Assembly: GCA_964558665.1 (NCBI GenBank) | Contig: CAZLFA010000011.1 | Coordinates: 4,617 to 68,616, forward strand | DNA length: 64,000 bases | Reading direction: 5' to 3' | From: an uncultured Syntrophaceae bacterium | GTDB taxonomy: Bacteria; Desulfobacterota; Syntrophia; Syntrophales; PHBD01 | Part shown: positions 13,001-63,321 of the stretch, in pieces | Layout of the letters: each line of letters starts with the position of its first letter | Position numbering within the stretch: the first letter of the stretch is position 1 | Notes under the pieces: model-generated | Databases searched by the model: none | Told to the model about the DNA's origin: nothing | The model's input: only the letters and a program-made list of their open reading frames with translations | Translations under genes and position numbers: made by a program

Positions 13001-13318
13001 CCTCTTGTGGACATGGAAGACATTTTCACGATCGTCAGGATGAACGAACTCTATGATATTACGACCCACGATTTCGGATGAGCGATATCCGTAACATTCG
13101 ATATTGCTTGTAACATAATTGAGACACCCCTCCGTATTGTAGGTAAAGACAACATCGCGGAGGTTTTCTACAATCGCCCGGTAACGAGCCTCGCTTATCG
13201 CAAGCGATTCTCTGATAGCCTCGATGTCGGCCACCTTGTTCTCCAGCTCTTTTATTCTGACTTTGAGAATACTGACGTCATCCGGAGATATATTAGCGGA
13301 TTCGCATGCCATGTTCAC
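10037..13318 (-). CDS. PAS-PAS-GAF-PAS sensor fused to a PP2C (SpoIIE/RsbU-type) phosphatase and an RsbW-like HATPase serine kinase domain
   Basis: Recurrent PAS ends (HDITERK, RDITHIK, ADITEHKK) and a GAF-like segment. PP2C region (..YAEGGDHFFV..FTSAGHPPFLL..DKLIFYTDGL..DDITLLGLE). C-terminal anti-sigma kinase-like N/G boxes (EEALANAWRHGN...VIDEGDGFD). Confidence 0.8.
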   Translation of the reverse strand: MNMACESANISPDDVSILKVRIKELENKVADIEAIRESLAISEARYRAIVENLRDVVFTYNTEGCLNYVTSNIECYGYRSSEIVGRNIIEFVHPDDRENVFHVHKRRIAFGDEIPITIKMLTADGKTCFMEDNARVVRNEAGKITHVVGILHDITERKIAEDAVANMNVQLEQRVQERTGELSQAYEDLKSEINERVRAEEAKQRSEYILAEVINFLPDPTFVIDRQNRVIVWNRAMEELTGVDMQHILGRGDYEYSLPFYGVRQPILIDLAVDPSKREDNRYLDVVQRGDALVAESHVVSLKGKQVYLWGIAKPFYDSQGEIIGAIESIRDITHIKDIEFRLKNELGKFNVLYDLALHMSAEKSLEDNLAFIVEKSRTIVGADVAFIVYADETHKHLCMHSFFGIESDAFKHLHLPIVGKRGNSAGEDSAGKDVRNREIRRLVDETVIDEGIVSIMAVPVKAGELVLGYLHVANRRLTEFSQNDLDTIQLFGNLAAIEIVRAQKNRELRDSETKYRTVFENTGSAMLIIEKDTTISLVNNEFTRLTGYSKEEIEGKKKWTEFVVPENLEEMLGMHRKRRSRPESALKQYEFRLKDINGVVRDIYINIDMIPGTTKSVASLADITEHKKAQQSLQKAHAELETRVAERTSELMTANSYLKDLLQKQDVNIDLAKNILAMINPRPYRHTRLAGGVDLFVTSEYVPCYAEGGDHFFVKNFTKWYPGMQKSVVSLKDQSGHEVSCILRSIVTDLIHNALLVNKTDTAVEHVVTRLNEEICNLSFFGEDNFFTAINAEIHHQDMKMRFTSAGHPPFLLIRGREVISLPGVEGDGGNLPIGFCKEIAFDAGEIALETGDKLIFYTDGLADLPRSYGKPVLRTDDIVAIASSIVKTDPRLPVSIIMKMLFSAAKGSGPDTSAASRDGRDDITLLGLELEDSTDSIEDVVCPGDVDEFTGCLNGLLEKMRKEWLDRGFASPETRLRMVLEEALANAWRHGNKQNPLKKISVRRRYGNDAVLEVIDEGDGFDSERSYDPTDMQNILNSDGRGNFLIRLLTEEVEWLSGGRHLIAYFSRHADGFNTRKPASTFNIWRREKQS

Positions 13319-14540: not shown

Positions 14541-17500
14541 TCATGACATTAATGCAGTATTCATAAACTCAAGATCTCTTCTGGCGTTATCGGTATCGTA
14601 AACGAGAAGATTCTTTTTCAGTTGTTCATACTTTTCGGCAAGCGTAGTCCCCTGCAAAAGCATGCCCAGAGGATTCAGCGCATCCATTGCCTTCGGCAAA
14701 TCCGTTTCCAGCGTGACAAGCATCTCACTGATGATCTCGTTCACGGATTTCCCATCCGGTATGCAGACATTTTCGGATCCGGAACGAGCATGATACCGGT
14801 CCAGGTATTCTCTTAAGACCGATATTGCACCGCTTAAATGATGATCGAAATCGGCAATCAGTTCCTCCCATGCCTCCTTCCTGACATCCTTTATGGCCTT
14901 CTCAAGGCCTCTGGAACTCCACTGAAGTCGCTTCGCTCCAATAAGTCCCGCCACAGACTTCATGGAATGTGAGATGCGCAGCGCCTTTTCCCGATCGCCC
15001 TTCTGTATGGCTTCACGAACGGCATGTGCATCATCGGCATGGTTTTCAACAAACGACTGAATTGCCTTCAGATATAATCTTGCGTCTCCCTGCATCATTC
15101 TTGTCACCGACTCTCTCACGGCAATACCCGGCAATTCTTCAGGAAGAGAATCATCCACGGCTTCCCGCCCCGACTTTTGCAAGGGAATGGCCATTCGCTG
15201 ACCGGGTTTGATCCACTTGAGAAGCATGGCATGAAGATTTTCAGGATTGATCGGCTTTGAGATGTAATCATTCATGCCGGACAGGAGACACTCTTCCCGG
15301 TCCCTGGACAGGACATGCGCCGTCAGGGCAATGATCGGCAGGTCCTTCAGATCAAGCCTGCGGCGGATGATCCTTGCGGCCTCATAACCATCCAGCAGCG
15401 GCATCTGCACATCCATAAGCACAATATCGAATATGCCCTGCTTTGCTTTTTCCACGGCTTCCAGGCCGTTGCCTGCCAGGCTTACAACCAGTCCCGCCTT
15501 TTCAAGCAGTTCTTTCGCAACCTGCTGATTCAGTTCATTGTCCTCTGCAAGCAGCACCTGCGCTCCGGCAATGCCTGCCAGATGAACGGAGGGTTTATGA
15601 TCTTCTGCTGCCGTACAGGGGGTTATCCTCTCCTTTCCAAAGAGAACCATGATTGTATCAAGCAGAACAGAGGGCGAGATCGGTTTGAGGAGAAATCCGT
15701 CAAGCCCGGCTTTTTCCGCCCGGGTTCTTATGTCTTCGTAGCTGTAAGCCGTCGCCATGAGAATTTTCGGAATATTCTTCAGTTTCAGATAGCTTTTTAT
15801 GTATTGCGCCGCTTCAATTCCGTTTGTTCCCTGTAATCTCCAGTCCATGATCACGAGGTCATAGGGCATGTCTGTGTCGGCTTTTTTTATCTCAGCTATG
15901 GCCTTCTCTGCCGAGGCGGTATCCTTTACTATGAGCCCCATGGCATCGAGCATTCCCTTCAATATCTGCCTCGCGGCATGGCTGTCGTCCACAACCAGAA
16001 TTCGCAGTCCCTTCAGCTCCGCTGACGTTTCGACATAATGTCTGGATGTCACGGCCCCGGCGCCGAAAACGGCAAAGAAACTGAAAATGCTGCCCTTGTA
16101 TAATTCACTGTCGACGATTATTCGTCCGCCCATCATTTCCACAAGCCTCCGGCTGATCGCCAGCCCCAGACCCGTTCCCCCGTACTTGCGGGTTACCGAT
16201 GAATCACCCTGCATGAAAGGCTGGAACAGTCTGCCCTGCTGCTCCTCCGTCATCCCGATGCCTGTATCGATTACGGAAAACTGGAGATGAATCTTCTCCT
16301 GCTCTCCTTCAAATTCACGTTTGACCAGTCTAGTTCGTATGATGACCTCGCCCTGCTCCGTAAACTTCACGGCATTGTTTCCCAGGTTGATGAGGACCTG
16401 TCCGAGCCTCAGCGCGTCTCCACTGAGAGACACAGGAACATCGGGCGCTGTATCCACCAGAAGTTCCAGCTTCTTTTCCGATGCCTTCATGCCGATGATC
16501 GTCACGGCGTTATCCAGAACATCCTCAAGCATGAAGTCGGTTTCCTCTATATCGAGTTTGCCGGCCTCGATTTTAGAAAAATCGAGGATGTCGTTTATAA
16601 TTCCCAGAAGCGATTGTCCCGCCGATTCTATCTTGTGCAGATAGTCGGCCTGTTTCCCTGTCAGATCAGTCTGCAGCGCCAGATGGGTCATACCCAGCAC
16701 TGCGTTCATCGGCGTTCTTATCTCATGGCTCATATTGGCGAGAAACTCGCTCTTGGACTGTGTGGCCGCCTCGGCAACCTTCTTTGCCGCAACCAGTTCC
16801 GCTGTTCTTTCATTTACAAGCTCTTCCAGGCGGTTCCGGTAGTTCTCAAGGTCTATCTCCGCCCTCTTGCGCTCCGTTATATCCTCATAGACGACCACAA
16901 CCCTGCCTTCCGAAAAATGATCGCCGATAGCCGAGATATTAATCCTGCAGACGATGTTTCTGCCGTCTTTCCTTATACATGTATATTCCGTGCTGTAATT
17001 TCTTTGATCCTTCATGGCGGAATAGAAAGTCATGCCGATATCCTTGTAATCACTTTCGCTGCCATATAAAACCCTTGTCGTCTGGCCGATGAGCTCTTCG
17101 GGGGTCCATCCGAAAACCTGCTCAACCGCATCATTGGCAAAGACTATCCGGCGGTTATGCAGACCCATCACGGCATGGGGAATAGCAATCAGGATGGATG
17201 ATTCCATTGCCTTCTGCTCCTCGATCTTCTCCATTGCCTCCTTAATTTCCGTAATATCCATCGAGTTGCCGAGGATCGCAGGTTTTCCTCCGAGATGGAC
17301 GGAAGTGACCGTCTCCATAATCCAGCGGGTTTTTCCTTCTCTGGTAACTATCCTGAACTCATAGGGGGCTCTGCGCTTCCCCCGAAGCATTTTAACGGCA
17401 TTGGCTCTGACCAGTTCACGGTCGTCATCATGAACAATTGCAGTAGCGACGCGTCCGATCAATTCATGCGGGCCATATCCCGCGTATGAAGCGGCATTTG

Positions 17501-19598
17501 CATTGAGAAAGCTGAACTTTCCTTCCTGCACTATGTAAACACCGGCGATTGATTTCTCCGCTATCAGCCGATATCTCTCTTCACTTTCCTGAACCGCCGT
17601 TTCAGCAACCCTCCCTCTGATGATTTTCTGCAATTCACTGGCAACCAGATTGACCTGCATGACATCAAGATCATTGTATTCCGCCGACTTGTTGCCTACC
17701 CCGAAAATAATTCTGACCTTTCCGTCTTCAATCACGGGTATGCTCATGAAGCGGCTGATCGTTGTATGCCCTTCGGGGAGGCCCTTTCTGTTCGGTGAGT
17801 TATTGTAGTCATTATAAACGACAGCACCCTTCAGACGGACACAATCCACCCAGTTTCCCGCGCTTTCGATTGAATAATGGGCATCATGAGAGACTGCGCA
17901 GTTTTCCATTGCCTGTCCGTTCCATGCTGTCAGAACGACGCTTGCCTGATCGTCGGAAACAAGATGAAAAAAGCCCACTTTGCTTTCTGTAAGGCTCACC
18001 GCCCTTTCAAGCACATAGTTGTACAGCTCTCTGTCGGTAAGCTTCGGCGCCTTTTCATACAGCTCGAGGAGATACCTGCCCCGTTCCAATTCTTTATGAA
18101 GGAGTTCTTCCCTCTTTATTTTTTCCGAAATGTCCCTGAATGTCAGAACTGCGCCGACAACTCTGCCTTCTTCGACAATCGGTGTGCTTGTATATTCAAC
18201 CGGAATGCCGGTTCCGTCCTTTTTCCAGAAAAGATCTTTTGCTATGTGATGAACCTTCCCGTCTCTGTATGCCGCATATATGGGACACTCCTCTTCAGGA
18301 TAACTGCCGCCGACGGCCCTTGTATGGTGAAATGTCTTGTGGCTTTCAAGCCCCGTCATTTCCCCGGTATCATAACCGAGCATTTGAGCGGCTACAGGAT
18401 TGACATAGACATGCCTTCCTTCGGTATCCAGCCTTATGATGCCCTCACCCGCCGATTGCAGGATCTGCTCTTTCTCATTTTTCAACTGCGCGATCTTCGC
18501 CTCGGCTATCCTGCGCTCCAGATGCCTCCGCTCGAGTATTTCAGCCATTTCATCAAACGATCTGGCCAACTGTCCGATCTCGTTCTCCTCGTAGGGAAGC
18601 CCTGTCCGGGCGTCCAGATTCCCCTGTCCAAGCTGTTTCGAAGCCTCGACCAGCACATCCATCCTCTTTGCTATTATCCGGTTGCCTATGAGATGCGCCA
18701 CAATCAGCGCCAGCAGAGCGGCAATCCCAAGCAGCTCCAGATTCCTCATCAACGCGCGATCAGCCGCGGCAAGAACCTGTTCTTCCGGAATTCCGACACG
18801 GATATAAAGGTACGGGGTCTTAACTCCCGGAAGATGAATACGCTTATATCCGTAAAGACGCCTTTTACCGTCAACTCCCGTGGCGAAAAAATTGCCTTCA
18901 CCTTCAGAGGACGACATTCTTGAGATCATTTCCGGCAGATCCTTCTCGCCTGCATACCTCTCAAAGGCCGGATAGCGGTAAAGGCGGACGCCATTGCCAT
19001 CGGTGAGCGCGATTGCCGATCCTTCCGGCAGCCTGGCTATTTCAAAATATTTTTCGTAATACGCCGCATTGAAGCCCGCGGCAGCAACAGCGCGAACCTT
19101 TCCATTCGCTCCGGTTACCGGATAGGCATAATGAAATACAGGCACACCGGCTGAGCGGCTCAGCACATACTCGCCGATGGAAAACTTGCCGGTTCGCATA
19201 ATTTCCTTGAAGTATTTGCGGTCGGCTATGTTGAATGACTTAACGAGAGGAGCAGAGGCAAAAACGGCGCCTTCCGGAGATGCGACATTTATGACTGCAT
19301 AACCGGGATTTTTAGCCAGCAGCTCATTCAGCAGCAGCTCACATTCCTTTACGTTCTGTTGCTCCACAGCCGGAATTTTGGAGATCATCATGAGCAGTTG
19401 GCGGGTGCTGTTTGTTATATTCTCCTGCTGAATGGCCACCCCCTGGGCAAGGTTTGTTATGTCGCGCCTGGCTTTTTCAATCTCTTCGCTTCTCCTTTCC
19501 ATGCCGGTCAGAACAATTATTCCCAGAGCCGGCAGGATGGCGAAAAAAACCAGCACAAATAGATGGATGCGGATAGGAAGCGAGAAAACCGACCTCAT
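14541..19598 (-). CDS. Hybrid sensor histidine kinase (periplasmic sensor-HAMP-PAS-GAF-PAS-PAS-HisKA-HATPase-REC-REC-HPt)
   Basis: 1685 aa. H-box SEFLANMSHEIRTPMN. N/G boxes (LINLGNNAVKFT, DTGIGM, GGTGLGLAIS). Two receiver domains (ILVVDDSH..DLVIMDWRLQG; VLLAEDNE..DIVLMDVQMP). C-terminal HPt-like SHSMKSVAGLIGA. Confidence 0.9.
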   Translation of the reverse strand: MRSVFSLPIRIHLFVLVFFAILPALGIIVLTGMERRSEEIEKARRDITNLAQGVAIQQENITNSTRQLLMMISKIPAVEQQNVKECELLLNELLAKNPGYAVINVASPEGAVFASAPLVKSFNIADRKYFKEIMRTGKFSIGEYVLSRSAGVPVFHYAYPVTGANGKVRAVAAAGFNAAYYEKYFEIARLPEGSAIALTDGNGVRLYRYPAFERYAGEKDLPEMISRMSSSEGEGNFFATGVDGKRRLYGYKRIHLPGVKTPYLYIRVGIPEEQVLAAADRALMRNLELLGIAALLALIVAHLIGNRIIAKRMDVLVEASKQLGQGNLDARTGLPYEENEIGQLARSFDEMAEILERRHLERRIAEAKIAQLKNEKEQILQSAGEGIIRLDTEGRHVYVNPVAAQMLGYDTGEMTGLESHKTFHHTRAVGGSYPEEECPIYAAYRDGKVHHIAKDLFWKKDGTGIPVEYTSTPIVEEGRVVGAVLTFRDISEKIKREELLHKELERGRYLLELYEKAPKLTDRELYNYVLERAVSLTESKVGFFHLVSDDQASVVLTAWNGQAMENCAVSHDAHYSIESAGNWVDCVRLKGAVVYNDYNNSPNRKGLPEGHTTISRFMSIPVIEDGKVRIIFGVGNKSAEYNDLDVMQVNLVASELQKIIRGRVAETAVQESEERYRLIAEKSIAGVYIVQEGKFSFLNANAASYAGYGPHELIGRVATAIVHDDDRELVRANAVKMLRGKRRAPYEFRIVTREGKTRWIMETVTSVHLGGKPAILGNSMDITEIKEAMEKIEEQKAMESSILIAIPHAVMGLHNRRIVFANDAVEQVFGWTPEELIGQTTRVLYGSESDYKDIGMTFYSAMKDQRNYSTEYTCIRKDGRNIVCRINISAIGDHFSEGRVVVVYEDITERKRAEIDLENYRNRLEELVNERTAELVAAKKVAEAATQSKSEFLANMSHEIRTPMNAVLGMTHLALQTDLTGKQADYLHKIESAGQSLLGIINDILDFSKIEAGKLDIEETDFMLEDVLDNAVTIIGMKASEKKLELLVDTAPDVPVSLSGDALRLGQVLINLGNNAVKFTEQGEVIIRTRLVKREFEGEQEKIHLQFSVIDTGIGMTEEQQGRLFQPFMQGDSSVTRKYGGTGLGLAISRRLVEMMGGRIIVDSELYKGSIFSFFAVFGAGAVTSRHYVETSAELKGLRILVVDDSHAARQILKGMLDAMGLIVKDTASAEKAIAEIKKADTDMPYDLVIMDWRLQGTNGIEAAQYIKSYLKLKNIPKILMATAYSYEDIRTRAEKAGLDGFLLKPISPSVLLDTIMVLFGKERITPCTAAEDHKPSVHLAGIAGAQVLLAEDNELNQQVAKELLEKAGLVVSLAGNGLEAVEKAKQGIFDIVLMDVQMPLLDGYEAARIIRRRLDLKDLPIIALTAHVLSRDREECLLSGMNDYISKPINPENLHAMLLKWIKPGQRMAIPLQKSGREAVDDSLPEELPGIAVRESVTRMMQGDARLYLKAIQSFVENHADDAHAVREAIQKGDREKALRISHSMKSVAGLIGAKRLQWSSRGLEKAIKDVRKEAWEELIADFDHHLSGAISVLREYLDRYHARSGSENVCIPDGKSVNEIISEMLVTLETDLPKAMDALNPLGMLLQGTTLAEKYEQLKKNLLVYDTDNARRDLEFMNTALMS

Positions 19599-22010: not shown

Positions 22011-22670
22011 TTAAACTTTTTCGATGGTGATCAGCCCGTACTGGATGCAAAACTTAATAAGGCCGGGAAGATCTCTTACATTCAGCTTCTGCATAAGCCG
22101 GCTGCGGTACGTATCAACGGTTTTCGGGGAAAGGTGGAGCTTTTGAGCTATTTCAGCGCTTGTCCTGCCTTCTGCAACAAGCTGAAGAACCTCACGCTCC
22201 CTCAGGCTGAGCGTTTTCAACGGATCTCCGGAATCAATAGTCTTTCCCGGCGCCAGTTTGTCATCCCAGATACGGTCCGAGACTTTCCTGCTCATGAATC
22301 GCCTTCCGGCACGCACGGATTTCACCGCGTCTATCAACTCACTGCCGGCCGACTCTTTCAGTATATAACCGGCGACACCGGCACCCAGCGCCCGCATGAT
22401 GTGTTCGGATGAAGCATACATGGAAAGAATGATAACCCGTGTCTCGGGACATTGCTTGCAAATCAGTTCGGCCGCCTCAATACCGTTCATCTCCGACATG
22501 GCAATGTCCATAAGAACGATATCGGGGTTGACCTGCCTAACTTTTTTAACGGCATCCCGACCGTTGTCCGCTTCCCCGACGACGGAAAATCCTTCCTGAG
22601 CTTCCAGGAGATATCTCAGCCCGTCACGGACAATCGCGTGATCATCGGCTATAAAGATTGTGACGTTCAT
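22011..22670 (-). CDS. NarL/FixJ-family response regulator (REC + LuxR-type HTH)
   Basis: IFIADDHAIVRDGL..DIVLMDIAMSEMNG; C-terminal LSLREREVLQLVAEGRTSAEIAQKLHLSPKTVDTYRSRLMQKL. There is a 4-nt overlap with the upstream kinase gene. Confidence 0.9.
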   Translation of the reverse strand: MNVTIFIADDHAIVRDGLRYLLEAQEGFSVVGEADNGRDAVKKVRQVNPDIVLMDIAMSEMNGIEAAELICKQCPETRVIILSMYASSEHIMRALGAGVAGYILKESAGSELIDAVKSVRAGRRFMSRKVSDRIWDDKLAPGKTIDSGDPLKTLSLREREVLQLVAEGRTSAEIAQKLHLSPKTVDTYRSRLMQKLNVRDLPGLIKFCIQYGLITIEKV

Positions 22671-25600
22671 AGCGGAACCTCTATAATGATTTTTGTTCCC
22701 TTTCCGGGATTGGATGCAACGGTCAAATTGCCGCCGATTGACCGTGAACGCTCATCCATGGATGCTATCCCCCAGCTGTGCCTTTCTTCCGCCCTGGCAA
22801 TCTTTTTAGCATCGAAGCCTATACCGTCATCCTCAATGGTGACCATAACCTTACCGCCGGATATTCCCCCCGACACATCAACATGACCCGCCAGTGCATG
22901 CTTGCTGACATTGTTCAACGCTTCCTGGACAATGCGAAAGACCGCCACCTCCGTCTCCATTTTCGGCCGGGGAATGATATCTTCTCCCGTCACGGTCAAG
23001 TCAATTCCCGTCCGCTTTGTAAAAAGATCTCCATACCACCTTATTGATGCCATGAGACCGTAGTCGTCCATAACGGGAGGCCGCAGATCGGACATCAGGG
23101 TGCGGGTAAATTCCGTAATCCTCTCAATCAAAACCAGCGAGTCATCCACGCGCTGGATAAGTTTTTCATGGGTCTCCGGGGGAATAAAGGACCTGATTAT
23201 ACTGACATTGATCCCTAAAGCTGTCAGATTCTGTCCCAGATTGTCATGAAGTTCTCCGGCAACGCGCTTTCTTTCCGCCTCTTCCGCCTCGGCAAGCTTG
23301 GCAGCCAGCTTTTTCAGCTTTTCACTCTGAGCTCTCAGGATTTGCTCATTTAGCTTTCTTTCCGTGATATCAAGGATTGTTCCGGTAATATGATCGCTGT
23401 CAAAATAACAGTTTATAAGAGCGTGCTTTATATCACCGGGCCTCGTCATCATCTCGAGTTCATAATTTCGCACCAGCGGCGTCTTTTTCAGTTCATCCAG
23501 CAGCACCCGGCCGTCAGCAGATTTCTTGCACAGCATCAGAGCGTTAAGCGACATCAAATCTTCACTTGAGGGGTAGGAAAGCATCCTTGCCATGGCATGG
23601 TTCGCAAAGGTGATCGTTCCGTCATCCCGGCAGCGGAATACGCCCATCAGCGAACTGTCAACCAGATTGCGATATCTCTTTTCAGAACTTAAAAGATTGT
23701 TTTCCAGTTGACGGCGCTCGGTAATGTCTTCATATATTCCTTCATAATGACGAAGATTTCCATTCTCATCAAGAACGGAATGCATATTGATGGATATCCA
23801 TATCGGCTTTCCGTTTTTATGATAGAACTGGGTCTCAAACCCCTTGACCGATCCCCGCTTGGCGATGAGCTGCAGCATTGCATTGTTGGCCCCCGGCGCT
23901 ACGAAAAGCTGAGATGCCTTGACTCCCCGGGCCGTCAATTCATCCGGGGAGGCATAACCGAGAATATTTGCCAGGGCCTGATTTGCCATGAGGAAATATC
24001 CTTCCCGGCTTATCTGGCAGATTCCCTCCTGCGCATTTTCCACAATGCTGCGGTATTTTTCCTCTGCCCTTCTCAACCTTTCCTCTGCATCCCTGCGGGC
24101 GCTGACATCCTGGACGATGATCAGATAATGGTCGTCTTCATCGATGTTGATTATCTCGCTGGAGAAAAGGCAGGTTTTTACCCTGCCCGCTTTTGAGCGG
24201 AATCTGAATTCCTGATCAACCACCTTGTTTTTGCTTTGCAGGGCGCCGAGGCATTTCCTCTTATCCTCTGCCGATGCCCACAGGTTCAGCTCATTGGCGT
24301 TCCTGGCCAGGGCATCTTCCCGCGAGTATCCGGAAATCATTGAAAATCCCTCATTTATATCCACAATCGCGCCGTCTTTCACACGGGCAATCATTATTGC
24401 ATCGGGACTGAAGTGAAATGCCTTGAAAAACTTTTCTTCGCTTCTGATCCGCGCATCCTCTGAGAGCTTGCGCTCCGTCATATCGTGCGAGACGACAACG
24501 GCATGAGTTATGTGTCCGCCCGGTGAATAATACGGATAATAATTTATTTCATAATATCTTCTTTCCCCTGCCGGAAACTGAATCCAACTGGTTTCCCTTA
24601 CCCGGCTGCCGGACAGACAACGGTCTATCTTTTCCCTGATGACATTTGAGAATCGTTCTTTTCCCCAGATGTCGCCGACCGATTTTCCGATAACGTCGCC
24701 TCTGCCTTTTCCCATAACCCGGCAATAGGATTCGTTGGCAACCTCATAGACATAGTCCCTGTTGATCAGCGTCATGAGCTCGCTTGCCGAATTGACGATG
24801 AATTCACTTTTTCTCCACAGGCCCTCAAGCGCCATCCTCTCCGAAATATCCTGGCCGACCGAGAGGATGCCTGTAATACGGCCATCGGCATCCCTGAGCT
24901 CTTTTTCATACCATTCAATATCCCTGCGTCGACCGTCTTTCGTTAATATGGGGTTTACATTTCCCCGCACCCGCTCACCTTTCATTGCGTTATCGAGCAA
25001 AAGGGAAATCATCTCTCTGTCCTTCGGCGGCAGAAAGGTTTGAACCCAGTCTTTTCCTCTGACCTCTTCAAGACTGTATCCGGAAATCTCCTCCATGTAA
25101 GGATTGAAAAAGACAATGCGCCCGTCTGTGTCCAGGATCAGCACAATCGCCTGAGCTGTCTCTATCATACTTTCGGCAAACTCTTTTTCCCTTCTTATGT
25201 CCTCCTGTGCCCTTTTTCTGCTCTCCTCCGCTCCCAGTGCGGAAGCTATTATGCCGAAGACACGCCTGTCTTCTTCGGAAAAGCCGATATCCCGGCGGGA
25301 CATTACACAAAGGACACCCTGTTTCAGACCGCCGATTCGCACCAGATGGCCGCAGTATGTTTCCACGCCGGCCAGCCGTATCATGGGAATGCGGTCTGCC
25401 AGTTCACTGCCGCCCAGATGTCTTAGATACAGGTATTCTTCGTCTGCCTGATCAAACACCAGGCCGCAAAGGCTGTTATCCACGGATACACACTCCGGCA
25501 TTCCCTCGGGATAATTCCAGGCGCCGACACGGCGGATCAAGGCTCCCTCCAGAAGGGAATAGAGGGCAATGTCAACTCCGAATATCTCCCCGCAAAGGGC

Positions 25601-26980
25601 AACCAGGCTTTCTACATTTGCCTGGTAGTCGGAACCCAGAGCAAGCAGACACCTGTTGATTTTTTCCAGCCTGTCCTCCGATCGTCTGCGCTCCGTCACG
25701 TCCCTTAAGTACGAGAACAGGGCCGGTTTCCCTTCGAACTGAATCACTCCGCCCAGCGCCTCCATGCAGCGCAGGCTGCCGTCTTTGTATACGGCCCGAA
25801 ACTGCATCGGCATGGCGGTGGACATCCCCGACATGCGTTCCAGATAGCGTTTGATCATTGCATCGTGATCGCTTTTATGAACCATATCGAGAAAGGATTT
25901 GCCCAGCAGTTCCTCTTCGCTGTACCCGGAATCCATGATCAGCCTTCTATTGACAAAGCGGAAAAGACCGTCCTGAATAACGACAACACTGTCCATCCCC
26001 TGCTCAATCAGGGTGGCATACTTCTGTTCAGATTCCCGGAGCGCTTCCATTACCCTGTTGCGCTCGGTGATGTCACGCGACACGCCATGATATCCTGACA
26101 GGTTTCCCTGATCATCCCGGATTATCTTGACTACGCTCTCCAGCCACCTTGTCGATCCGTCCTTGTGATAGTATTCCAATTCAAGCGTCACCGCTCTGTC
26201 AGGATCGAGTCCTCTGCTCTCTTCTTCCTCCAGTTTCTGAGCCATAACCGATTCGACGACAAACATGGAGGCAGGCGTTATCTGGTCTCGAACGTTCTGA
26301 GTAATCCGCTCTTCGACGGTAAAACCCAGAACTCTCTCTATGGAAGGACTGACGTAAGTTGTGCGCAGGTTGAGATCCAATATCCAGACGATGTCATTCA
26401 TTCTATCGGTGAGCAGTCTGAGCTTTGCCTCACTGGCTTTGATTGCCTCCTCTGCCTGCCTGCGTCCGGTTATTTCCCGGCAGCCGACAACGATGCTTGT
26501 CGGCAATCCGTTCTCCCAAACAGCCCTGCCGGCGGCTTCAAACCATATATAACGACCGTCGACGTGGCGGAAGCGGAAAGTGGCTTCCTCTTCTTCTTTC
26601 TTCATTTCTATCGCCTTCATGAAGGCTGATATTACTCCGTCGCGATCGTCGGGATGAATGTAATCGAAACCGCTTCTGCCTATAAGTTCCATCATTTCAT
26701 AACCAAGGATTTTTTTCACCGACGGGGTCACGTATCGAAAAGATGCATCGACATCAAACAGGGCAACAATGTCAACGACGCTGTCCAGTATGGTTTTCAG
26801 CTTAATATCACCGGGCGGCACGATGGCTTCCTCCCGGGAAACCTTACCCCTCAGTTCGTTAAGCTCTTCTATCAGCTTCTTTTTTGTCTTTCTTTCATCT
26901 TTCATAGCGCAAATAACCAAATAAAAGCCCCGATCCTTTTTCAAAGAAACAGGGCTTGTGCAAGTCCATACCAACCTCAT
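22667..26980 (-). CDS. Multi-PAS/GAF sensor histidine kinase, HisKA_3 (NarX/DegS-like) class
   Basis: About eight PAS-end-like motifs (REITGRR, DITERN, DVTERR, DISERM, DMTERK, DVSARR, DITERR, DITERK) and one GAF-like segment. HisKA_3 H-box ELHDNLGQNLTAL. HATPase (QEALNNVSKHA..IEDDGIGFD..GGNLTVASNPGKGT). An alternative start lies at 26905 (MKDERK..). Confidence 0.85.
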   Translation of the reverse strand: MRLVWTCTSPVSLKKDRGFYLVICAMKDERKTKKKLIEELNELRGKVSREEAIVPPGDIKLKTILDSVVDIVALFDVDASFRYVTPSVKKILGYEMMELIGRSGFDYIHPDDRDGVISAFMKAIEMKKEEEEATFRFRHVDGRYIWFEAAGRAVWENGLPTSIVVGCREITGRRQAEEAIKASEAKLRLLTDRMNDIVWILDLNLRTTYVSPSIERVLGFTVEERITQNVRDQITPASMFVVESVMAQKLEEEESRGLDPDRAVTLELEYYHKDGSTRWLESVVKIIRDDQGNLSGYHGVSRDITERNRVMEALRESEQKYATLIEQGMDSVVVIQDGLFRFVNRRLIMDSGYSEEELLGKSFLDMVHKSDHDAMIKRYLERMSGMSTAMPMQFRAVYKDGSLRCMEALGGVIQFEGKPALFSYLRDVTERRRSEDRLEKINRCLLALGSDYQANVESLVALCGEIFGVDIALYSLLEGALIRRVGAWNYPEGMPECVSVDNSLCGLVFDQADEEYLYLRHLGGSELADRIPMIRLAGVETYCGHLVRIGGLKQGVLCVMSRRDIGFSEEDRRVFGIIASALGAEESRKRAQEDIRREKEFAESMIETAQAIVLILDTDGRIVFFNPYMEEISGYSLEEVRGKDWVQTFLPPKDREMISLLLDNAMKGERVRGNVNPILTKDGRRRDIEWYEKELRDADGRITGILSVGQDISERMALEGLWRKSEFIVNSASELMTLINRDYVYEVANESYCRVMGKGRGDVIGKSVGDIWGKERFSNVIREKIDRCLSGSRVRETSWIQFPAGERRYYEINYYPYYSPGGHITHAVVVSHDMTERKLSEDARIRSEEKFFKAFHFSPDAIMIARVKDGAIVDINEGFSMISGYSREDALARNANELNLWASAEDKRKCLGALQSKNKVVDQEFRFRSKAGRVKTCLFSSEIINIDEDDHYLIIVQDVSARRDAEERLRRAEEKYRSIVENAQEGICQISREGYFLMANQALANILGYASPDELTARGVKASQLFVAPGANNAMLQLIAKRGSVKGFETQFYHKNGKPIWISINMHSVLDENGNLRHYEGIYEDITERRQLENNLLSSEKRYRNLVDSSLMGVFRCRDDGTITFANHAMARMLSYPSSEDLMSLNALMLCKKSADGRVLLDELKKTPLVRNYELEMMTRPGDIKHALINCYFDSDHITGTILDITERKLNEQILRAQSEKLKKLAAKLAEAEEAERKRVAGELHDNLGQNLTALGINVSIIRSFIPPETHEKLIQRVDDSLVLIERITEFTRTLMSDLRPPVMDDYGLMASIRWYGDLFTKRTGIDLTVTGEDIIPRPKMETEVAVFRIVQEALNNVSKHALAGHVDVSGGISGGKVMVTIEDDGIGFDAKKIARAEERHSWGIASMDERSRSIGGNLTVASNPGKGTKIIIEVPL

Positions 26981-58685: not shown

Positions 58686-59789
58686 CTATCGAAATTTTTC
58701 CAATATAAAATCGGAGGCTTTGTCACTGCGCATCAATATGCACAAAACCATTCCTTCCCGATATTCTGGAGAATGGAGAAGGTGAACAGATATCTCAATC
58801 AGCTTACCTGTCCGGGCGTTTTTATACAGGAAGTAAACATATGATGTCTTGCTTTCTCCGAGCAATACCCATTTTCCCAATACCGCTTCGACTTCCTTGA
58901 ATTGCAAATACTGGCTGTTATAGTCGTTATTTGGATGAACAGTTACCCTGAAGGAGGGAGGGCAGGTTACTGAATCAATCACTTGTCGGGTCTTGTCATT
59001 TGATATCCTTATTTCATATCCGGGGATATTCAACCTGATCAACCTGAAGTTATTCTTTGCATTCGTCTCTTCAGTGGCCTTTATTCCAAAATGTTTTTCT
59101 ATCGCTTCAAGGGTCGGTGTTTCACCGGAGACAATTTCTGCAATAGGTATTAATATGGATGATATGGGAAATGGTTTTTCCGGTTGTTTATCACGCCTCC
59201 CCTCAAAAAAATCTATATCAAATTTGGTTACACCTCTCCAAATCGCTATTGACAAAACCCTGGCTTCCGGGTCGCTTGGAGGAGTGCTAAGGTGCACAGA
59301 GATACCGACCATTTCCTTAGTCTGTGGGTTCTTATGCAGAAAGAAAGCACGGTCTTCATTGCCATCCTTATCTATACCCGGCACAAATTTCCCCAACACT
59401 GCCGAAACTTCCTTGAATTTTAAATAGCGGTTATTTTGGGGAACGATTTCAACTACGTCCAGAATGTTTTTATATGTCTGAGATAATATTTTATATTCAG
59501 GAACCTTCAATCTGAAATACTTCATGGCTTTATATTTTTTTTCCTTAACAGCTTTAGTTCCAAGATGTTTTTCTATTGCTTCAACAGTTGGCGCTTCACC
59601 GGAGATAATTTCTATAATGGGTAGTATTATTGAAGATACAGAACCCACATCTTTGGTTTGCTCCTTATTTGTCCCGGCATTCTCCCCATCTGTTGATGCC
59701 TCACCGCATGAAAGCGAGAAGACCTGCAGCGAACAGAGAAGGATAAAAAAAACTACGATTAGGTTTCCTGAACAGCAATTCCGGTGCAT
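58686..59789 (-). CDS. Secreted/lipoprotein-like protein of unknown function built from two tandem ~150-aa repeats
   Basis: N-terminal hydrophobic signal with Cys residues (LLCSLQVFSLSCGE). Internal duplication: SSIILPIIEIISGEAPTVEAIEKHLGTKA / SSILIPIAEIVSGETPTLEAIEKHFGIKA; YLKFKEVSAVLGKFV / YLQFKEVEAVLGKWV; ISVHLSTPPSDPEARVLSIAIWR / ISVHLLHSPEYREGMVLCILMR. Confidence 0.6.
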   Translation of the reverse strand: MHRNCCSGNLIVVFFILLCSLQVFSLSCGEASTDGENAGTNKEQTKDVGSVSSIILPIIEIISGEAPTVEAIEKHLGTKAVKEKKYKAMKYFRLKVPEYKILSQTYKNILDVVEIVPQNNRYLKFKEVSAVLGKFVPGIDKDGNEDRAFFLHKNPQTKEMVGISVHLSTPPSDPEARVLSIAIWRGVTKFDIDFFEGRRDKQPEKPFPISSILIPIAEIVSGETPTLEAIEKHFGIKATEETNAKNNFRLIRLNIPGYEIRISNDKTRQVIDSVTCPPSFRVTVHPNNDYNSQYLQFKEVEAVLGKWVLLGESKTSYVYFLYKNARTGKLIEISVHLLHSPEYREGMVLCILMRSDKASDFILEKFR

Positions 59790-60151: not shown

Positions 60152-61183
60152 TCAGCTATTTTTGCTCGGCAGATGACGCTTAACAAAGATTATTAAAGAT
60201 ACAAACGTGAATATTCCAAGAGGCAAAAGCCACCACATCACTGCAATCACGAACCCGCCATAGATGCTCATCCCTGATTTGGAACCCAGCATCAGCAAAT
60301 CACCCTGTGTCAATACTCTTGCATACGGATAAAGTGTATGCCAAACAAAAGCACCTATGCAAAGCGCTATACCGCATGATAACAATAGACATCTCTCCCC
60401 AATTTTTTCGTTAAGATAATCAGCTGCTATCTTTACTCTGGATTCAAAATCACACGAAAATATTATTGAAAGAAGCAGACCTCCTGACATCGCCACCAGA
60501 TTCATTACAGCAGCAATGAACTGAGTTGCCGGTACGGTCGTTCTCCGTCCTGTTTCTTTTACGAGGGGAACGATAGCCGACATTCCATCCGTAAATCCAC
60601 TGGCCAGTGAATTATCAAGAATATTATCCGGCGTGAAAACCCCAAGTAAAATCCCCAAAAGTAAATAACTAATTAAAACTGCAAACCATGCTCTAATAAA
60701 ATATTTTCCCTGAGCAAATATGATGTCCCCTTCCCGACACAAGCCAAAATATCTTTTAGCAAAGATCGAAAAAGGTCTCCTGATCGGAACTTTCAATCCA
60801 TGGGTCAACACTCTTTGCGGAGCCTGTAACACCGTTAAAGCAAACTTCTCTTCGCTTGAAAATAACGTAAAGCTTACCTCCCTCTCATTTTCAATTTTCA
60901 GATCACCAAAAATGCCCATCGTAAACATGCTGAAGATTTCTGCCCTGTCCAATACATTAAAGGATTGATCAAGAAGATAAATGGAAAGCGTTTCTTCAAA
61001 TGGGCAATCATGAGTAAGAAACAGAAGATAGTGATGACCACATACAAATTGCGCCTCTAAAATTAGTCCTTTCAAAACAACACCAGTATCAAATCCCTTA
61101 TGAAATAACCTTGAAGACCAATTTTCTTCAGGATGTTTTATTTGCCTGAATTTCTGTATACTGAATTCCTCAATCACATACAT
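60152..61183 (-). CDS. Unknown protein: ~165-aa soluble N-terminal domain + C-terminal multi-TM region (candidate immunity/partner of the upstream glycine-zipper protein)
   Basis: The start is set at ATG 61183 (MYVIEEFSIQK..), with AGGAG 10 nt upstream and 14 nt after the upstream stop. The C-terminal half has about 5 hydrophobic helices (FIRAWFAVLISYLLLGILLGVF; FIAAVMNLVAMSGGLLLSIIF; CLLLSCGIALCIGAFVW; IYGGFVIAVMWWLLPLGIFTFVSLIIF). Confidence 0.55.
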   Translation of the reverse strand: MYVIEEFSIQKFRQIKHPEENWSSRLFHKGFDTGVVLKGLILEAQFVCGHHYLLFLTHDCPFEETLSIYLLDQSFNVLDRAEIFSMFTMGIFGDLKIENEREVSFTLFSSEEKFALTVLQAPQRVLTHGLKVPIRRPFSIFAKRYFGLCREGDIIFAQGKYFIRAWFAVLISYLLLGILLGVFTPDNILDNSLASGFTDGMSAIVPLVKETGRRTTVPATQFIAAVMNLVAMSGGLLLSIIFSCDFESRVKIAADYLNEKIGERCLLLSCGIALCIGAFVWHTLYPYARVLTQGDLLMLGSKSGMSIYGGFVIAVMWWLLPLGIFTFVSLIIFVKRHLPSKNS

Positions 61184-61197
61184 CGTCGTCAACTCCT

Positions 61198-61902
61198 TTA
61201 AAGCATCCAGTGAAACCAGGCCTTGGCCCCCGATGCGCCCAAGGCTCCGCCGATAAAGACTCCTATGGTTACGCAAATGGGTGATGCCGGCCCGCATGCC
61301 ATGCCAGCAGCCGCCCCTCCGGCTATACCGCCAAGCAAGCCGCCCCCCAACTCTGCGCCTTCTTCCGCCACTGCCGTTAATTTGTCCTCTGCCGTGGCAA
61401 CATTGTAAACAATGACACCAACAGTGACAAACATTATCGCGCGGCCCAATGAAGATAATCTGCGTGCTAAAATTGTAGTCTCAAGCCTATCCCGCCCGGC
61501 ACTTTCGATTATTTCCAGATAAACCTTATTTTGCTCAGGGATGTTTAATTCACTAAAAGATTTGTTAAATTTTTTCATAGCGTATTTTCCTGTAAGCTCG
61601 GACATTGATTTACCGGCATATTTTTCTTTCTGAGAATACGCCAGTCCCAGTTCGCTTAAACTCTTTCGCTGGACTTTCATCAATTCGTTTCTGATCATAT
61701 TGACCTGTTGTGCAGCCTTCTCGATCGACAGTGAGCCATTTTGAACCTTCCACTTATATTCATCAGACAGCGCTTTGATATTTCTCATGTACTTACGCCT
61801 TACCTGCGGGTCATTGATAAACCTTGTGGAAAAACTCAAAGCCTCAATCTCCAACTTTCTCAACAAATCTTCGATCTCCCTGTCTTTTTGAGACATCATC
61901 AA
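61198..61902 (-). CDS. Unknown helical protein ending in a TM helix + glycine-zipper hydrophobic hairpin (possible pore-forming/colicin-like membrane-insertion domain)
   Basis: No signal peptide and a ~160-aa Lys/Glu-rich helical region. The C-terminus reads GRAIMFVTVGVIVYNVATAEDKLTAVAEEGAELGGGLLGGIAGGAAAGMACGPASPICVTIGVFIGGALGASGAKAW (GxxxG repeats). Confidence 0.5.
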   Translation of the reverse strand: MMMSQKDREIEDLLRKLEIEALSFSTRFINDPQVRRKYMRNIKALSDEYKWKVQNGSLSIEKAAQQVNMIRNELMKVQRKSLSELGLAYSQKEKYAGKSMSELTGKYAMKKFNKSFSELNIPEQNKVYLEIIESAGRDRLETTILARRLSSLGRAIMFVTVGVIVYNVATAEDKLTAVAEEGAELGGGLLGGIAGGAAAGMACGPASPICVTIGVFIGGALGASGAKAWFHWML

Positions 61903-62151
61903 ATCCTCCTTTTTTCAAATCAATAGAAAGCACTAAATTCTTTCGACTACTCGCTTCGGGACGCGGACACAGCAAAAAAACATTCAGAAATCCTGCGATA
62001 ACTTACTGTGTGAATATCCGGTGATTTGAACGGAGAAGATTTGATGGTAGAAATAAGTAAGGATGATTTTATTTAGCCTGGGACGTACATCAGGTCAACC
62101 CTCAAAAAACACCTGAAAAATACCCTGATTATTTAAGGGTTGAAAACCTGA

Positions 62152-62535
62152 TCGGGAATCCCGGTAAAAACACAAAGGGTTCTCAGGCGGAAAGATGCTG
62201 AGAACCTGCTTCACCATTCAGAAAGCGGCAGCCAGTATTGTTCCCAGGATTACGGCTTATTGCTCAGCAGCTATGGCGTCAAGATATCCATGAGTCGGAA
62301 AGGAAACTGCTATGATAATGCACCTATGGAAAGCTTCTGGGGAAAACTGAAAAGTGAAATGATTCATCACTGTCGATTTGCAACAAGGAAGCAGGCTATA
62401 CAGGCAATAACTGAATACATAGAGATTTTCTATAATCGTCAACGACGGCTGGCCAGGCTCAACTATCTTTCACCTGCTACTTTTGAACAGGTGTATTATG
62501 AAAAGCTTCAACAAGAAAAATTACTCGCAGCATGA
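62152..62535 (+). mobile_element. IS3-family transposase remnant (3' end of the integrase-core ORF only; 5' part missing)
   Basis: In-frame translation ..LLHHSESGSQYCSQDYGLLLSSYGVKISMSRKGNCYDNAPMESFWGKLKSEMIHH..EYIEIFYNRQRRLARLNYLSPATFE matches the conserved C-terminal rve region of IS3 OrfB. A stop lies at 62149..62151, and there is no upstream OrfA or N-terminal part. Confidence 0.85.
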
Positions 62536-62701: not shown

Positions 62702-63106
62702 TTAGTCAGCGAACAGAGATTCAAAATTGCGTGGATTAACGATAATTATGTTCTTATACTTTTTCAGAACAAGCAGATCTTCGTCGCCAGTAACGATATA
62801 ATCAGCAGTCGCATCGACAGCGCAGGCAATAATCTTATCATCAGTTTTATCCCTGCAAATGCTTGGAATGCTACTAAGCTCACTTCGTATTTCAGATGCC
62901 GCTTCCGAAACGATTTCTATGATTTCAGCAACCTCAACAAGTGAAAGTTTGAACTTTTTTGTAAGGACACCTTTAAATTCCCCAATTATATCATCACAAA
63001 GAATAAGACTGAAAACATGCTTACGGGCTTTTGACAGAAGTCCGGAACAAACCCCTTCTGTCAAAAAAGCAGCAATAAGAATATTTGTATCAAATACCGC
63101 TCTCAC
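62702..63106 (-). CDS. PIN-domain toxin (VapC-like, COG1569-type)
   Basis: MRAVFDTNILIAAF.. N-terminal acidic motif and C-terminal ..YIVTGDEDLL... There is a 4-nt overlap with the upstream antitoxin gene. Confidence 0.8.
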   Translation of the reverse strand: MRAVFDTNILIAAFLTEGVCSGLLSKARKHVFSLILCDDIIGEFKGVLTKKFKLSLVEVAEIIEIVSEAASEIRSELSSIPSICRDKTDDKIIACAVDATADYIVTGDEDLLVLKKYKNIIIVNPRNFESLFAD

Positions 63107-63321
63107 GACATTGCCTTAAAAACATCGTCATCCGTGACAAAGCCGGCTGCTTTCGCCTTGGGGATGAGACGTTTCTTCATACGGCGGAATCTTTTCTCCC
63201 ACAAAAACTCCCCCAGGGATTCTTTCACGATGTCACTTTTATTTCTCCCTGTTTCCTTAGCAAGGGAATCGAGTTCGGTGGCCATTTTCTCAGGCAGACT
63301 AACAGACAGCACACTTCTCAT
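63103..63321 (-). CDS. Ribbon-helix-helix (CopG-like) antitoxin
   Basis: 72 aa. The N-terminus SVSLPEKMATELDSLAKETGRNKSDIVKESL fits an RHH beta-strand plus two helices. It is translationally coupled to the PIN gene. Confidence 0.7.
   Translation of the reverse strand: MRSVLSVSLPEKMATELDSLAKETGRNKSDIVKESLGEFLWEKRFRRMKKRLIPKAKAAGFVTDDDVFKAMS

Follow-up and report, generated by a model that had tools for sequence, protein, structure and literature searches.

If a toxin can insert into the inner membrane from either side and the partner protein made alongside it is soluble, by what means does a Gram-negative producer protect itself? This question was raised by two co-oriented minus-strand genes, gene 1 and gene 2. 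According to the list of open reading frames (ORFs) and a reading of the sequence, they occupy positions 60152-61902 of a 64,000-nucleotide stretch of DNA from an uncultured Syntrophaceae bacterium (contig CAZLFA010000011.1), below called the window. A preliminary description had taken the pair for a colicin-like glycine-zipper protein followed by a multi-transmembrane (multi-TM) immunity protein. With moderate confidence we read gene 1 as an orphan membrane-inserting toxin of the type delivered by type VI secretion systems (T6SSs), and gene 2 as its cognate immunity protein which has gained a membrane module. Judged by its homologues, gene 1 is a copy of a widespread, unnamed domain of about 225 amino acids (aa), presumably a toxin, and in some relatives the pair has been kept beside T6SS genes.

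The gene pair, its relatives and type VI secretion

A first search for relatives of gene 1 yielded 68 clusters of proteins of about 235 aa. An exhaustive search with the C-terminal 94 residues only gave 304 representatives at E <= 1e-3. For gene 2, a full-length homologue with 85% identity was found. Thus, both ORFs are real genes and not chance products. One homologue is labeled 'hypothetical protein' in RefSeq. Collections of plasmids and phages contained two plasmid or chromid matches to the family, again annotated 'hypothetical'; a phage homologue was absent from the phage collections.

In 79 of 90 loci with a member of the gene 1 family, a homologue of the N-terminal domain of gene 2 was located directly downstream on the same strand (the genome scan for the gene 1 family used an alignment of 12 closer sequences; an alignment of 42 sequences had no block that was conserved enough). 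The survey for conserved pairing that had been proposed earlier was therefore positive. Pairing spanned delta-, beta-, gamma- and alphaproteobacteria, acidobacteria and myxobacteria. Culturable carriers of gene 1 homologues, be they T6SS-adjacent or orphan copies, include Vibrio sp. MEBiC08052, Paracidovorax citrulli DSM 17060 and Pseudomonas fluorescens ISL-62. The partners consisted of about 150 aa and were homologous to the N-terminal half of gene 2. Accordingly, the co-conserved part is a soluble domain, and the multi-TM half, the topology of which had been taken to fit immunity, was seen fused to it in this lineage only. The partner family comprised 41 clusters, has no Pfam family and was always positioned downstream of the putative toxin. 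Extra partner copies without a toxin gene were present in Duganella loci (L076, L084, L092). Two loci carried a DUF7079 protein after the gene 1 homologues P0052 and P0056 (L098:10082-10501 and L099:10119-10520), and hhalign detected no relation of it to the usual partner.

Separate hidden Markov models were built for the helical N domain and the C-terminal module of gene 1, and 149 representatives were scored. Both modules, in this order, were identified in 117 of them; most of the 32 'C-only' proteins were short fragments. In P0268 the C module was present, whereas no N domain could be detected. In P0238 (288 aa) the C module at residues 37-115 was followed by a motif which, by eye, was partner-like (…FFRFLDNGLWKVKVLEEP…). 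Toxin and partner may be naturally fused in this protein; otherwise it represents a pair that has undergone a frameshift or become a pseudogene.

Genes of the T6SS were neighbours in several lineages. In a metagenome-assembled genome of Smithella the order was VipB, Hcp, VgrG, four unknown genes, gene 1 homologue, partner, VgrG, DUF2169 and a PAAR-like gene. VgrG followed the partner directly in L014, L015, L024 and L042, Hcp was upstream of the toxin homologue in L015, L016 (Vibrio; Pfam E 5.5e-25), L042 and L079, and VipA/VipB were directly upstream of it in L091. Altogether, 7 of 80 genome loci directly abutted a structural T6SS gene (Hcp, VgrG or VipB), compared with about 1% for a random gene by a rough estimate. 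One further locus had an ImpE gene upstream of the pair, and on an Eleftheria plasmid VgrG was 9 kb away. The four unannotated genes between VgrG and the gene 1 homologue in the Smithella cluster (L005:4228-7952) code for 272, 295, 328 and 295 aa. By tblastn at least two of the four are paralogues; additional effectors, immunity proteins or adaptors may be encoded here.

The unit of N domain and C module (NC unit) was also observed as part of larger proteins. P0157 consists of a PAAR domain, a Ser/Thr/Pro-rich linker and a full NC unit (PAAR_motif E 4.7e-18, N domain E 4.8e-50, C module E 1.4e-35). It was the sole PAAR or spike fusion among the 103 representatives of at least 200 aa which were scanned, and 10 nt after it a gene of the partner family begins (hhalign probability 99.9%, E 4e-34). 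Other heads on family members were eCIS-core (of extracellular contractile injection systems, eCIS), PG_binding_1, LysM and a signal peptide; overall, the N-terminal extensions fell into many unrelated groups. The diversity of heads together with the PAAR fusion indicated that the gene 1 family behaves like a polymorphic toxin. Pairing, T6SS adjacency and the PAAR fusion all support the toxin-immunity-like character first suggested for the cassette. In P0144 (1360 aa) the NC unit is at the N terminus (residues 8-230) and an Endonuclease_NS_2 domain at the C-terminal end (residues 1225-1308). This suggests that the NC unit can act as a module for translocating a nuclease toxin, or be combined with such a module.

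Architecture of the two proteins

The features of the locus are as follows; all are on the minus strand.

61905..61910, minus: ribosome-binding site AGGAGG of gene 1, 5 nt upstream of the ATG at 61899 (read from the sequence)
61198..61899, minus: gene 1, 233 aa, putative stand-alone NC toxin unit with a helical N domain and a C-terminal module predicted to insert into membranes (ORF, sequence, family)
61459..61899, minus: N-terminal helical domain, residues 1-147 (AlphaFold2, alignment, charge)
61390..61452, minus: hydrophobic helix TM1, residues ~150-170, GRAIMFVTVGVIVYNVATA (hydropathy)
61348..61389, minus: acidic linker, residues 171-184, EDKLTAVAEEGAEL (alignment)
61222..61347, minus: glycine-zipper helical hairpin, residues 185-226 (CGPxxPxC turn with C202 and C209)
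61184..61197, minus: intergenic spacer of 14 nt (read from the sequence)
61193-61197, minus: ribosome-binding site AGGAG of gene 2, immediately after the stop codon of gene 1 (read from the sequence)
60152..61183, minus: gene 2, 343 aa, soluble partner domain fused to a polytopic membrane domain (ORF and separate homologues for each half)
60734..61183, minus: partner (putative immunity) domain, residues 1-150 (homologues, alignment, AlphaFold2)
60170..60706, minus: polytopic membrane domain, residues ~160-338 (hydropathy, stand-alone homologues)

ORFs and sequence thus agree with the cassette as first described, i.e. two genes 14 nt apart with AGGAG before the second. The length of 234 aa given for gene 1 holds for the start chosen by the ORF finder, TTG at 61902; the likely start is the ATG at 61899, which yields 233 aa. 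The 3' boundary is at 61198. Scans for promoters and terminators gave scores no better than those of shuffled controls.

The N domain of gene 1 is basic with a net charge of +9. In the AlphaFold2 model residues ~30-140 were all helical with a predicted local distance difference test score (pLDDT) above 90. R34, Y37, R70, R78, G85 and K93 were invariant in the alignment and N71 was conserved to at least 90%. TM1 carries a conserved YN(I/V)ATA motif. The acidic linker was likewise conserved, K173 and E180 to at least 90%. The string GGGLLGGIAGGAAAGMACGPASPICVTIGVFIGGALGASG corresponds to residues 185-224; hydropathy and this string corroborated the TM helix, acidic linker and glycine-zipper hairpin which had been noticed in a helical protein. 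The turn of the hairpin reads CGPASPIC. Overlapping [GAS]xxx[GAS]xxx[GAS] motifs, or stacked GxxxG, run through the hairpin, and many zipper patterns were located in residues 178-227. The hairpin is the best-conserved region of the family; conservation peaks at its zipper glycines (G187, G190, G199, G203, G217 and G218 invariant), at the CGPxxPxC turn and at the AxDK linker. The Cx6C pair was present in 131 of 149 representatives, and several proteins without the pair have lost both cysteines. This joint retention and loss suggests a disulfide or another paired role of C202 and C209.

Known families did not account for either protein. In a Pfam-A hmmscan at E <= 10 YusW at E = 0.76 was the sole match reported and nothing meaningful was obtained for gene 1 or gene 2; NCBIfam had no match to either, and the PADLOC models, i.e. 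known anti-phage systems, none at E <= 10. The statement that neither protein has an assignable motif thus stands. Family profiles run against PDB sequences identified no relative of gene 1 or of the gene 2 partner. For gene 1 the best Foldseek match in the PDB had E = 0.8 with TM-scores below 0.33, and no colicin was among the 50 matches listed. Pore-forming colicins (PF01024) and VasX/TpeX resemble gene 1 in being helical with a hydrophobic hairpin for which insertion into the inner membrane is assumed. However, gene 1 gave neither a profile match to PF01024 at E <= 10 nor a structural match, and the ten-helix globin-like bundle with a buried hairpin was not recognised in it. The colicin label was dropped. 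At the same threshold gene 1 did not match the glycine-zipper families Gly-zipper_Omp (PF13488) and Gly-zipper_YMGG (PF13441), nor Rick_17kDa_Anti (PF05433) or Transgly_assoc (PF04226). A housekeeping protein of the ElaB/YqjD type had been named as the finding that would overturn the toxin idea. Neither DUF883 nor another family was matched in Pfam or NCBIfam; ElaB, YqjD and YgaM are tail-anchored proteins of about 100 aa, whereas gene 1 has 233 aa and three hydrophobic or glycine-rich helices.

The N-terminal ~150 residues of gene 2 contain no hydrophobic segment and no signal peptide. The partner domain is marked by the motif GxxLEA...YLLFLTxDxPFEExLxIYLLD. AlphaFold2 predicted an all-beta fold of 11 strands at a pLDDT of about 90 or higher. 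Foldseek returned weak partial matches to beta-propellers, resembling three blades (E 0.03-0.3). Partners had no TM segment in about 60 scored loci; two of them showed a single borderline segment. In the C-terminal half of gene 2 Kyte-Doolittle analysis delineated four strongly hydrophobic segments at ~160-189, 219-247, 261-286 and 304-338, and AlphaFold2 placed six helices. About five TM helices had first been estimated for this protein of 343 aa. Only two sequences underlie the AlphaFold2 model of this half, the confidence of which is low, TM-only homologues having been excluded after misalignment by MAFFT. The loop preceding TM2 holds the conserved motif V(K/R)ETGRRTTVPATQFIAAV.

Homologues of gene 2 formed three sets: the full-length protein P0070, proteins of about 200 aa with the TM half only, and proteins with the N half only. 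P0070, the 85% identical homologue, is on a contig syntenic with the window, CN_hydrolase and Peptidase_M15_2 genes following. Because the fusion is retained in this relative, it is not a sequencing artefact. Among loci bearing gene 1 the TM half was limited to sequences identical to the window and to the same fusion in P0070; the TM half is, by this distribution, apparently a lineage-specific add-on. The P0070 contig (JGI 3300075153, 5939 bp) encodes in order the toxin homologue (234 aa), a 156-aa ORF, the fused partner-TM gene (346 aa), CN_hydrolase and Peptidase_M15_2. The additional 156-aa ORF could be a stand-alone copy of the partner which the window has lost.

Stand-alone homologues of the TM half (P0071-P0074) shared 37-41% identity with it. 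Two of them, P0071 and P0073, are directly upstream of proteins that share a glycine-rich hydrophobic N-terminal domain of about 140 aa. The four-TM module of gene 2 thus accompanies other glycine-rich membrane proteins elsewhere. Its position beside glycine-rich, membrane-active proteins fits a role in membrane immunity, with two independent examples only. The downstream proteins in L001:4193-6389 (P0073) and L094:192-1769 (P0071) begin alike, M-x-EQS-x-x-L-x-FAF followed by a glycine-rich stretch. Their C-terminal parts differ, with Ca-binding-like repeats in L001 and LysM in L094. These pairs may represent another polymorphic system, in which a glycine-rich membrane protein has a TM partner. 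In L001 the gene of the stand-alone TM module is preceded by a ThsB-like TIR gene that adjoins a Peptidase_C14 (caspase-like) gene (L001:1253-2622), a context that looks like a defence island.

A proposed mechanism and its alternatives

How could such a pair operate? In other bacteria a domain of the gene 1 type would be delivered by a T6SS, either as cargo linked to Hcp or VgrG or as a PAAR fusion. The C-terminal helices would insert into the inner membrane of the target and may oligomerise via their glycine zippers. The oligomers would then collapse the membrane potential, as the glycine-zipper toxins Tse4 and EsxX do. The all-beta N-terminal domain of gene 2 would be the conserved, soluble, cytoplasmic neutraliser. 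Probably it sequesters the hydrophobic glycine-zipper region or binds a part of the toxin that faces the cytoplasm, and would protect the producer before the toxin is exported. The fused four-TM module would hold this neutraliser at the membrane, and it may also guard against toxin molecules that come in through the periplasm.

The closest functional precedent for gene 2 would be the EsxX system of Staphylococcus aureus. EsxX is a membrane-depolarising T7SS (type VII secretion system) toxin, the activity of which rests on a glycine-zipper motif. A soluble ExiAB complex sequesters this zipper in the cytoplasm of the producer and the polytopic ExiCD proteins protect against EsxX arriving from outside (PMC12744356). 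Gene 2 looks like a single-chain version, in which a soluble and a polytopic module with presumably corresponding roles are joined. The likeness of gene 1 to EsxX would be one of function; EsxX belongs to a Gram-positive T7SS and carries an LXG delivery domain.

Among T6SS effectors Tse4 of Pseudomonas aeruginosa is reportedly associated with a glycine zipper. The immunity proteins of Tse4 and Ssp6/Tpe1 are membrane or periplasmic proteins and are not known to be soluble cytoplasmic ones. As presumed for gene 1, Tse4 and Ssp6/Tpe1 of Serratia (PMC6889166) are small cargo effectors, often in orphan pairs with the immunity gene downstream. Ssp6 acts on the inner membrane by forming ion-selective pores (PMC6889166). 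Compared by description only, the gene 1 family is distinguished from Tse4 and Ssp6 by a helical N domain some 150 aa long and by the CGPxxPxC turn. Tme of Vibrio parahaemolyticus is a widespread membrane-disrupting T6SS effector domain with a C-terminal TM helix; similar to the gene 1 family, it is encountered in pairs that are orphans or have Hcp, VgrG or PAAR as neighbours, and also in fusions with delivery domains (PMC7046647). It has a nearly invariant DxxK before the TM helix and its immunity proteins, Tmi, are DUF1240-like TM proteins (PMC7046647). Read against this published definition, gene 1 has A-E-D-K following its first TM helix and lacks DxxK. The partner had no Pfam match, DUF1240 included. 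The MIX proteins VasX and TpeX have a mass of about 120 kDa, and their immunity proteins contain TM segments (TpeX preprint). As relatives, TpeX/VasX (119 kDa, MIX), Ssp4 (13 helices plus a sheet, with the four-TM protein Sip4) and Tke5 were set apart by size and architecture as published. The literature on glycine-zipper and pore-forming T6SS effectors contained no description of the gene 1 family that we could find.

Several observations weigh against a T6SS toxin with a soluble immunity protein. With VgrG, Hcp, VipA, VipB and PAAR-like queries tblastn found nothing in the 64-kb window, in line with the initial impression that secretion-system genes are missing; the relatives explain this gap in delivery, the window holding an orphan copy. 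About 90% of the family loci are not adjacent to T6SS genes. Most are orphans in unrelated contexts, a placement that is usual for T6SS cargo effector-immunity pairs. A toxin subclade with a 130-aa N-terminal extension pairs with the unrelated DUF7079 protein. In nearly all loci the partner family has neither a TM segment nor a signal peptide, unlike the membrane proteins Sip4 (PMC12669606), Tmi (PMC7046647) and TpiX (TpeX preprint), and a soluble partner is atypical for immunity to T6SS pore-formers. The hairpin region of gene 1 was poorly modelled by AlphaFold2 (pLDDT < 50). Finally, the invariant polar residues hint that the role of the N domain may go beyond maintaining solubility.

The solubility of the partner would be readily understood if it were a cytoplasmic chaperone or adaptor which shields the helices of gene 1 and hands the toxin to Hcp, VgrG or PAAR. 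True immunity would then be encoded elsewhere, be unnecessary or, in the window, be supplied by the TM half of gene 2; beside other glycine-rich proteins this module could indeed be the real membrane immunity. We consider this unlikely. As a general principle it is plausible that three hydrophobic helices of an effector have to be shielded until export, and the membrane location of Sip4, Tmi and TpiX can be cited in its favour, as can the discussion of Hcp as a chaperone in the Ssp4 paper (PMC12669606). Yet the partner invariably follows the toxin, also in the PAAR-fused form, which is the classical position of immunity genes; copies without a toxin exist, and a fusion to a polytopic membrane protein is hard to reconcile with release of cargo. 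The model for such a chaperone would be Eag (DUF1795), which like the partner is soluble, beta-rich, about 150 aa long and encoded beside an effector with hydrophobic helices. Eag genes precede the effector gene, and the effectors that Eag serves are of the prePAAR/Rhs type and carry their TM domains at the N terminus. The partner did not match DUF1795, DUF4123 or DUF2169; for DUF1795 gene 2 and two stand-alone partners were searched in Pfam, and no Eag structure was among the 50 Foldseek PDB matches listed for the N domain of gene 2.

Alternatively, the helical N domain may be the toxic moiety, acting in the cytoplasm or at the inner membrane face, with TM helix and hairpin as a device for self-translocation or anchoring and the partner as the neutraliser of the N domain. 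The C-terminal part would then resemble the glycine zipper of Agrobacterium Tde1, the translocation of which is reported to require this zipper (PMC10240207), or the TM domains of prePAAR proteins. A cytoplasmic immunity-like partner, the confident compact fold predicted for the N domain and its invariant R34, Y37, R70, R78 and K93 (with N71) agree with this, and in P0144 the NC unit precedes a nuclease, where a module for translocation would be expected. Nevertheless, an enzymatic family or fold match to the N domain was not obtained, the two modules travel together with the C module being the more conserved one, and P0268 has a C module alone; we judge such a toxic N domain quite improbable. 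Membrane effectors with a soluble partner are also common in defence systems, and the pair might be a two-gene anti-phage abortive-infection system in which the beta-domain is a sensor that controls a membrane-disrupting gene 1. The window copy is in low-G+C accessory DNA beside an insertion sequence (IS) fragment and a PIN toxin-antitoxin module, and KwaB or zeta-toxin genes are upstream in some relatives. The lack of PADLOC matches and of phage homologues and the mostly ordinary housekeeping neighbours speak against it, and the PAAR fusion, direct Hcp/VgrG/VipB adjacency and the polymorphic delivery heads point to secreted toxins. A defence function is very improbable.

A secreted membrane toxin with a soluble immunity domain is therefore the reading which we retain. 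Only tentatively would we extend it to a toxin family of T6SSs and possibly eCIS which is held in check by a cytoplasmic three-blade beta cap, gene 2 being a dual-compartment immunity protein with a TM module derived from another glycine-zipper system. If true, gene 2 would extend the principle of two-compartment immunity, as in EsxX, to Gram-negative T6SS effectors. The fused protein lends itself, as it stands, to telling apart the two routes of protection proposed here. As far as sequences tell, the gene 1 family is undescribed, widespread and T6SS-linked, and the fusion is seen only in this lineage. Characterised membrane-acting T6SS effectors are few, and the gene 1 family, with about 300 representative clusters, extends over many phyla. 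Being absent from Pfam, NCBIfam and PADLOC, it is missed by genome annotation. Through its relatives an isolated 'hypothetical' pair in accessory DNA was assignable to a secretion system.

Genomic surroundings

Between 58 and 64 kb the G+C content is 41-43%, down from about 50% in the rest of the window. The pair is flanked by an integrase-core (rve) fragment (62260-62535) and a PIN toxin (62702-63106) with a small upstream ORF, as anticipated from A+T-richer DNA beside an IS3 remnant and a toxin-antitoxin module. The IS3-type fragment (rve_2/rve_3) has 91 aa; the toxin is PIN_3, and the upstream ORF of 72 aa (63103-63321) overlaps it. Both elements confirm that this end of the window is accessory.

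Just downstream of gene 2, on the minus strand, a 367-aa ORF (58686-59789) has a lipoprotein-like signal (…FSLSCGE…). It contains an internal duplication, i.e. two copies of an ILPI(I/A)EI(I/V)SGE(A/T)PT(V/L)EAIEKH(L/F)G… unit. No Pfam family matched this ORF, which is a single-member cluster. In the syntenic P0070 contig it is missing, and CN_hydrolase comes directly after the fused gene.

The other large genes of the window code for signalling proteins and ordinary enzymes. Very large signalling proteins are concentrated at 732-28914, including two methyl-accepting chemotaxis proteins, a fusion of HDOD and a Ser/Thr kinase (732-2927), a PAS/GAF protein with SpoIIE and HATPase domains (10037-13318), a hybrid histidine kinase of 1685 aa (14541-19598) and a kinase of 1437 aa with at least eight PAS domains (22667-26980).

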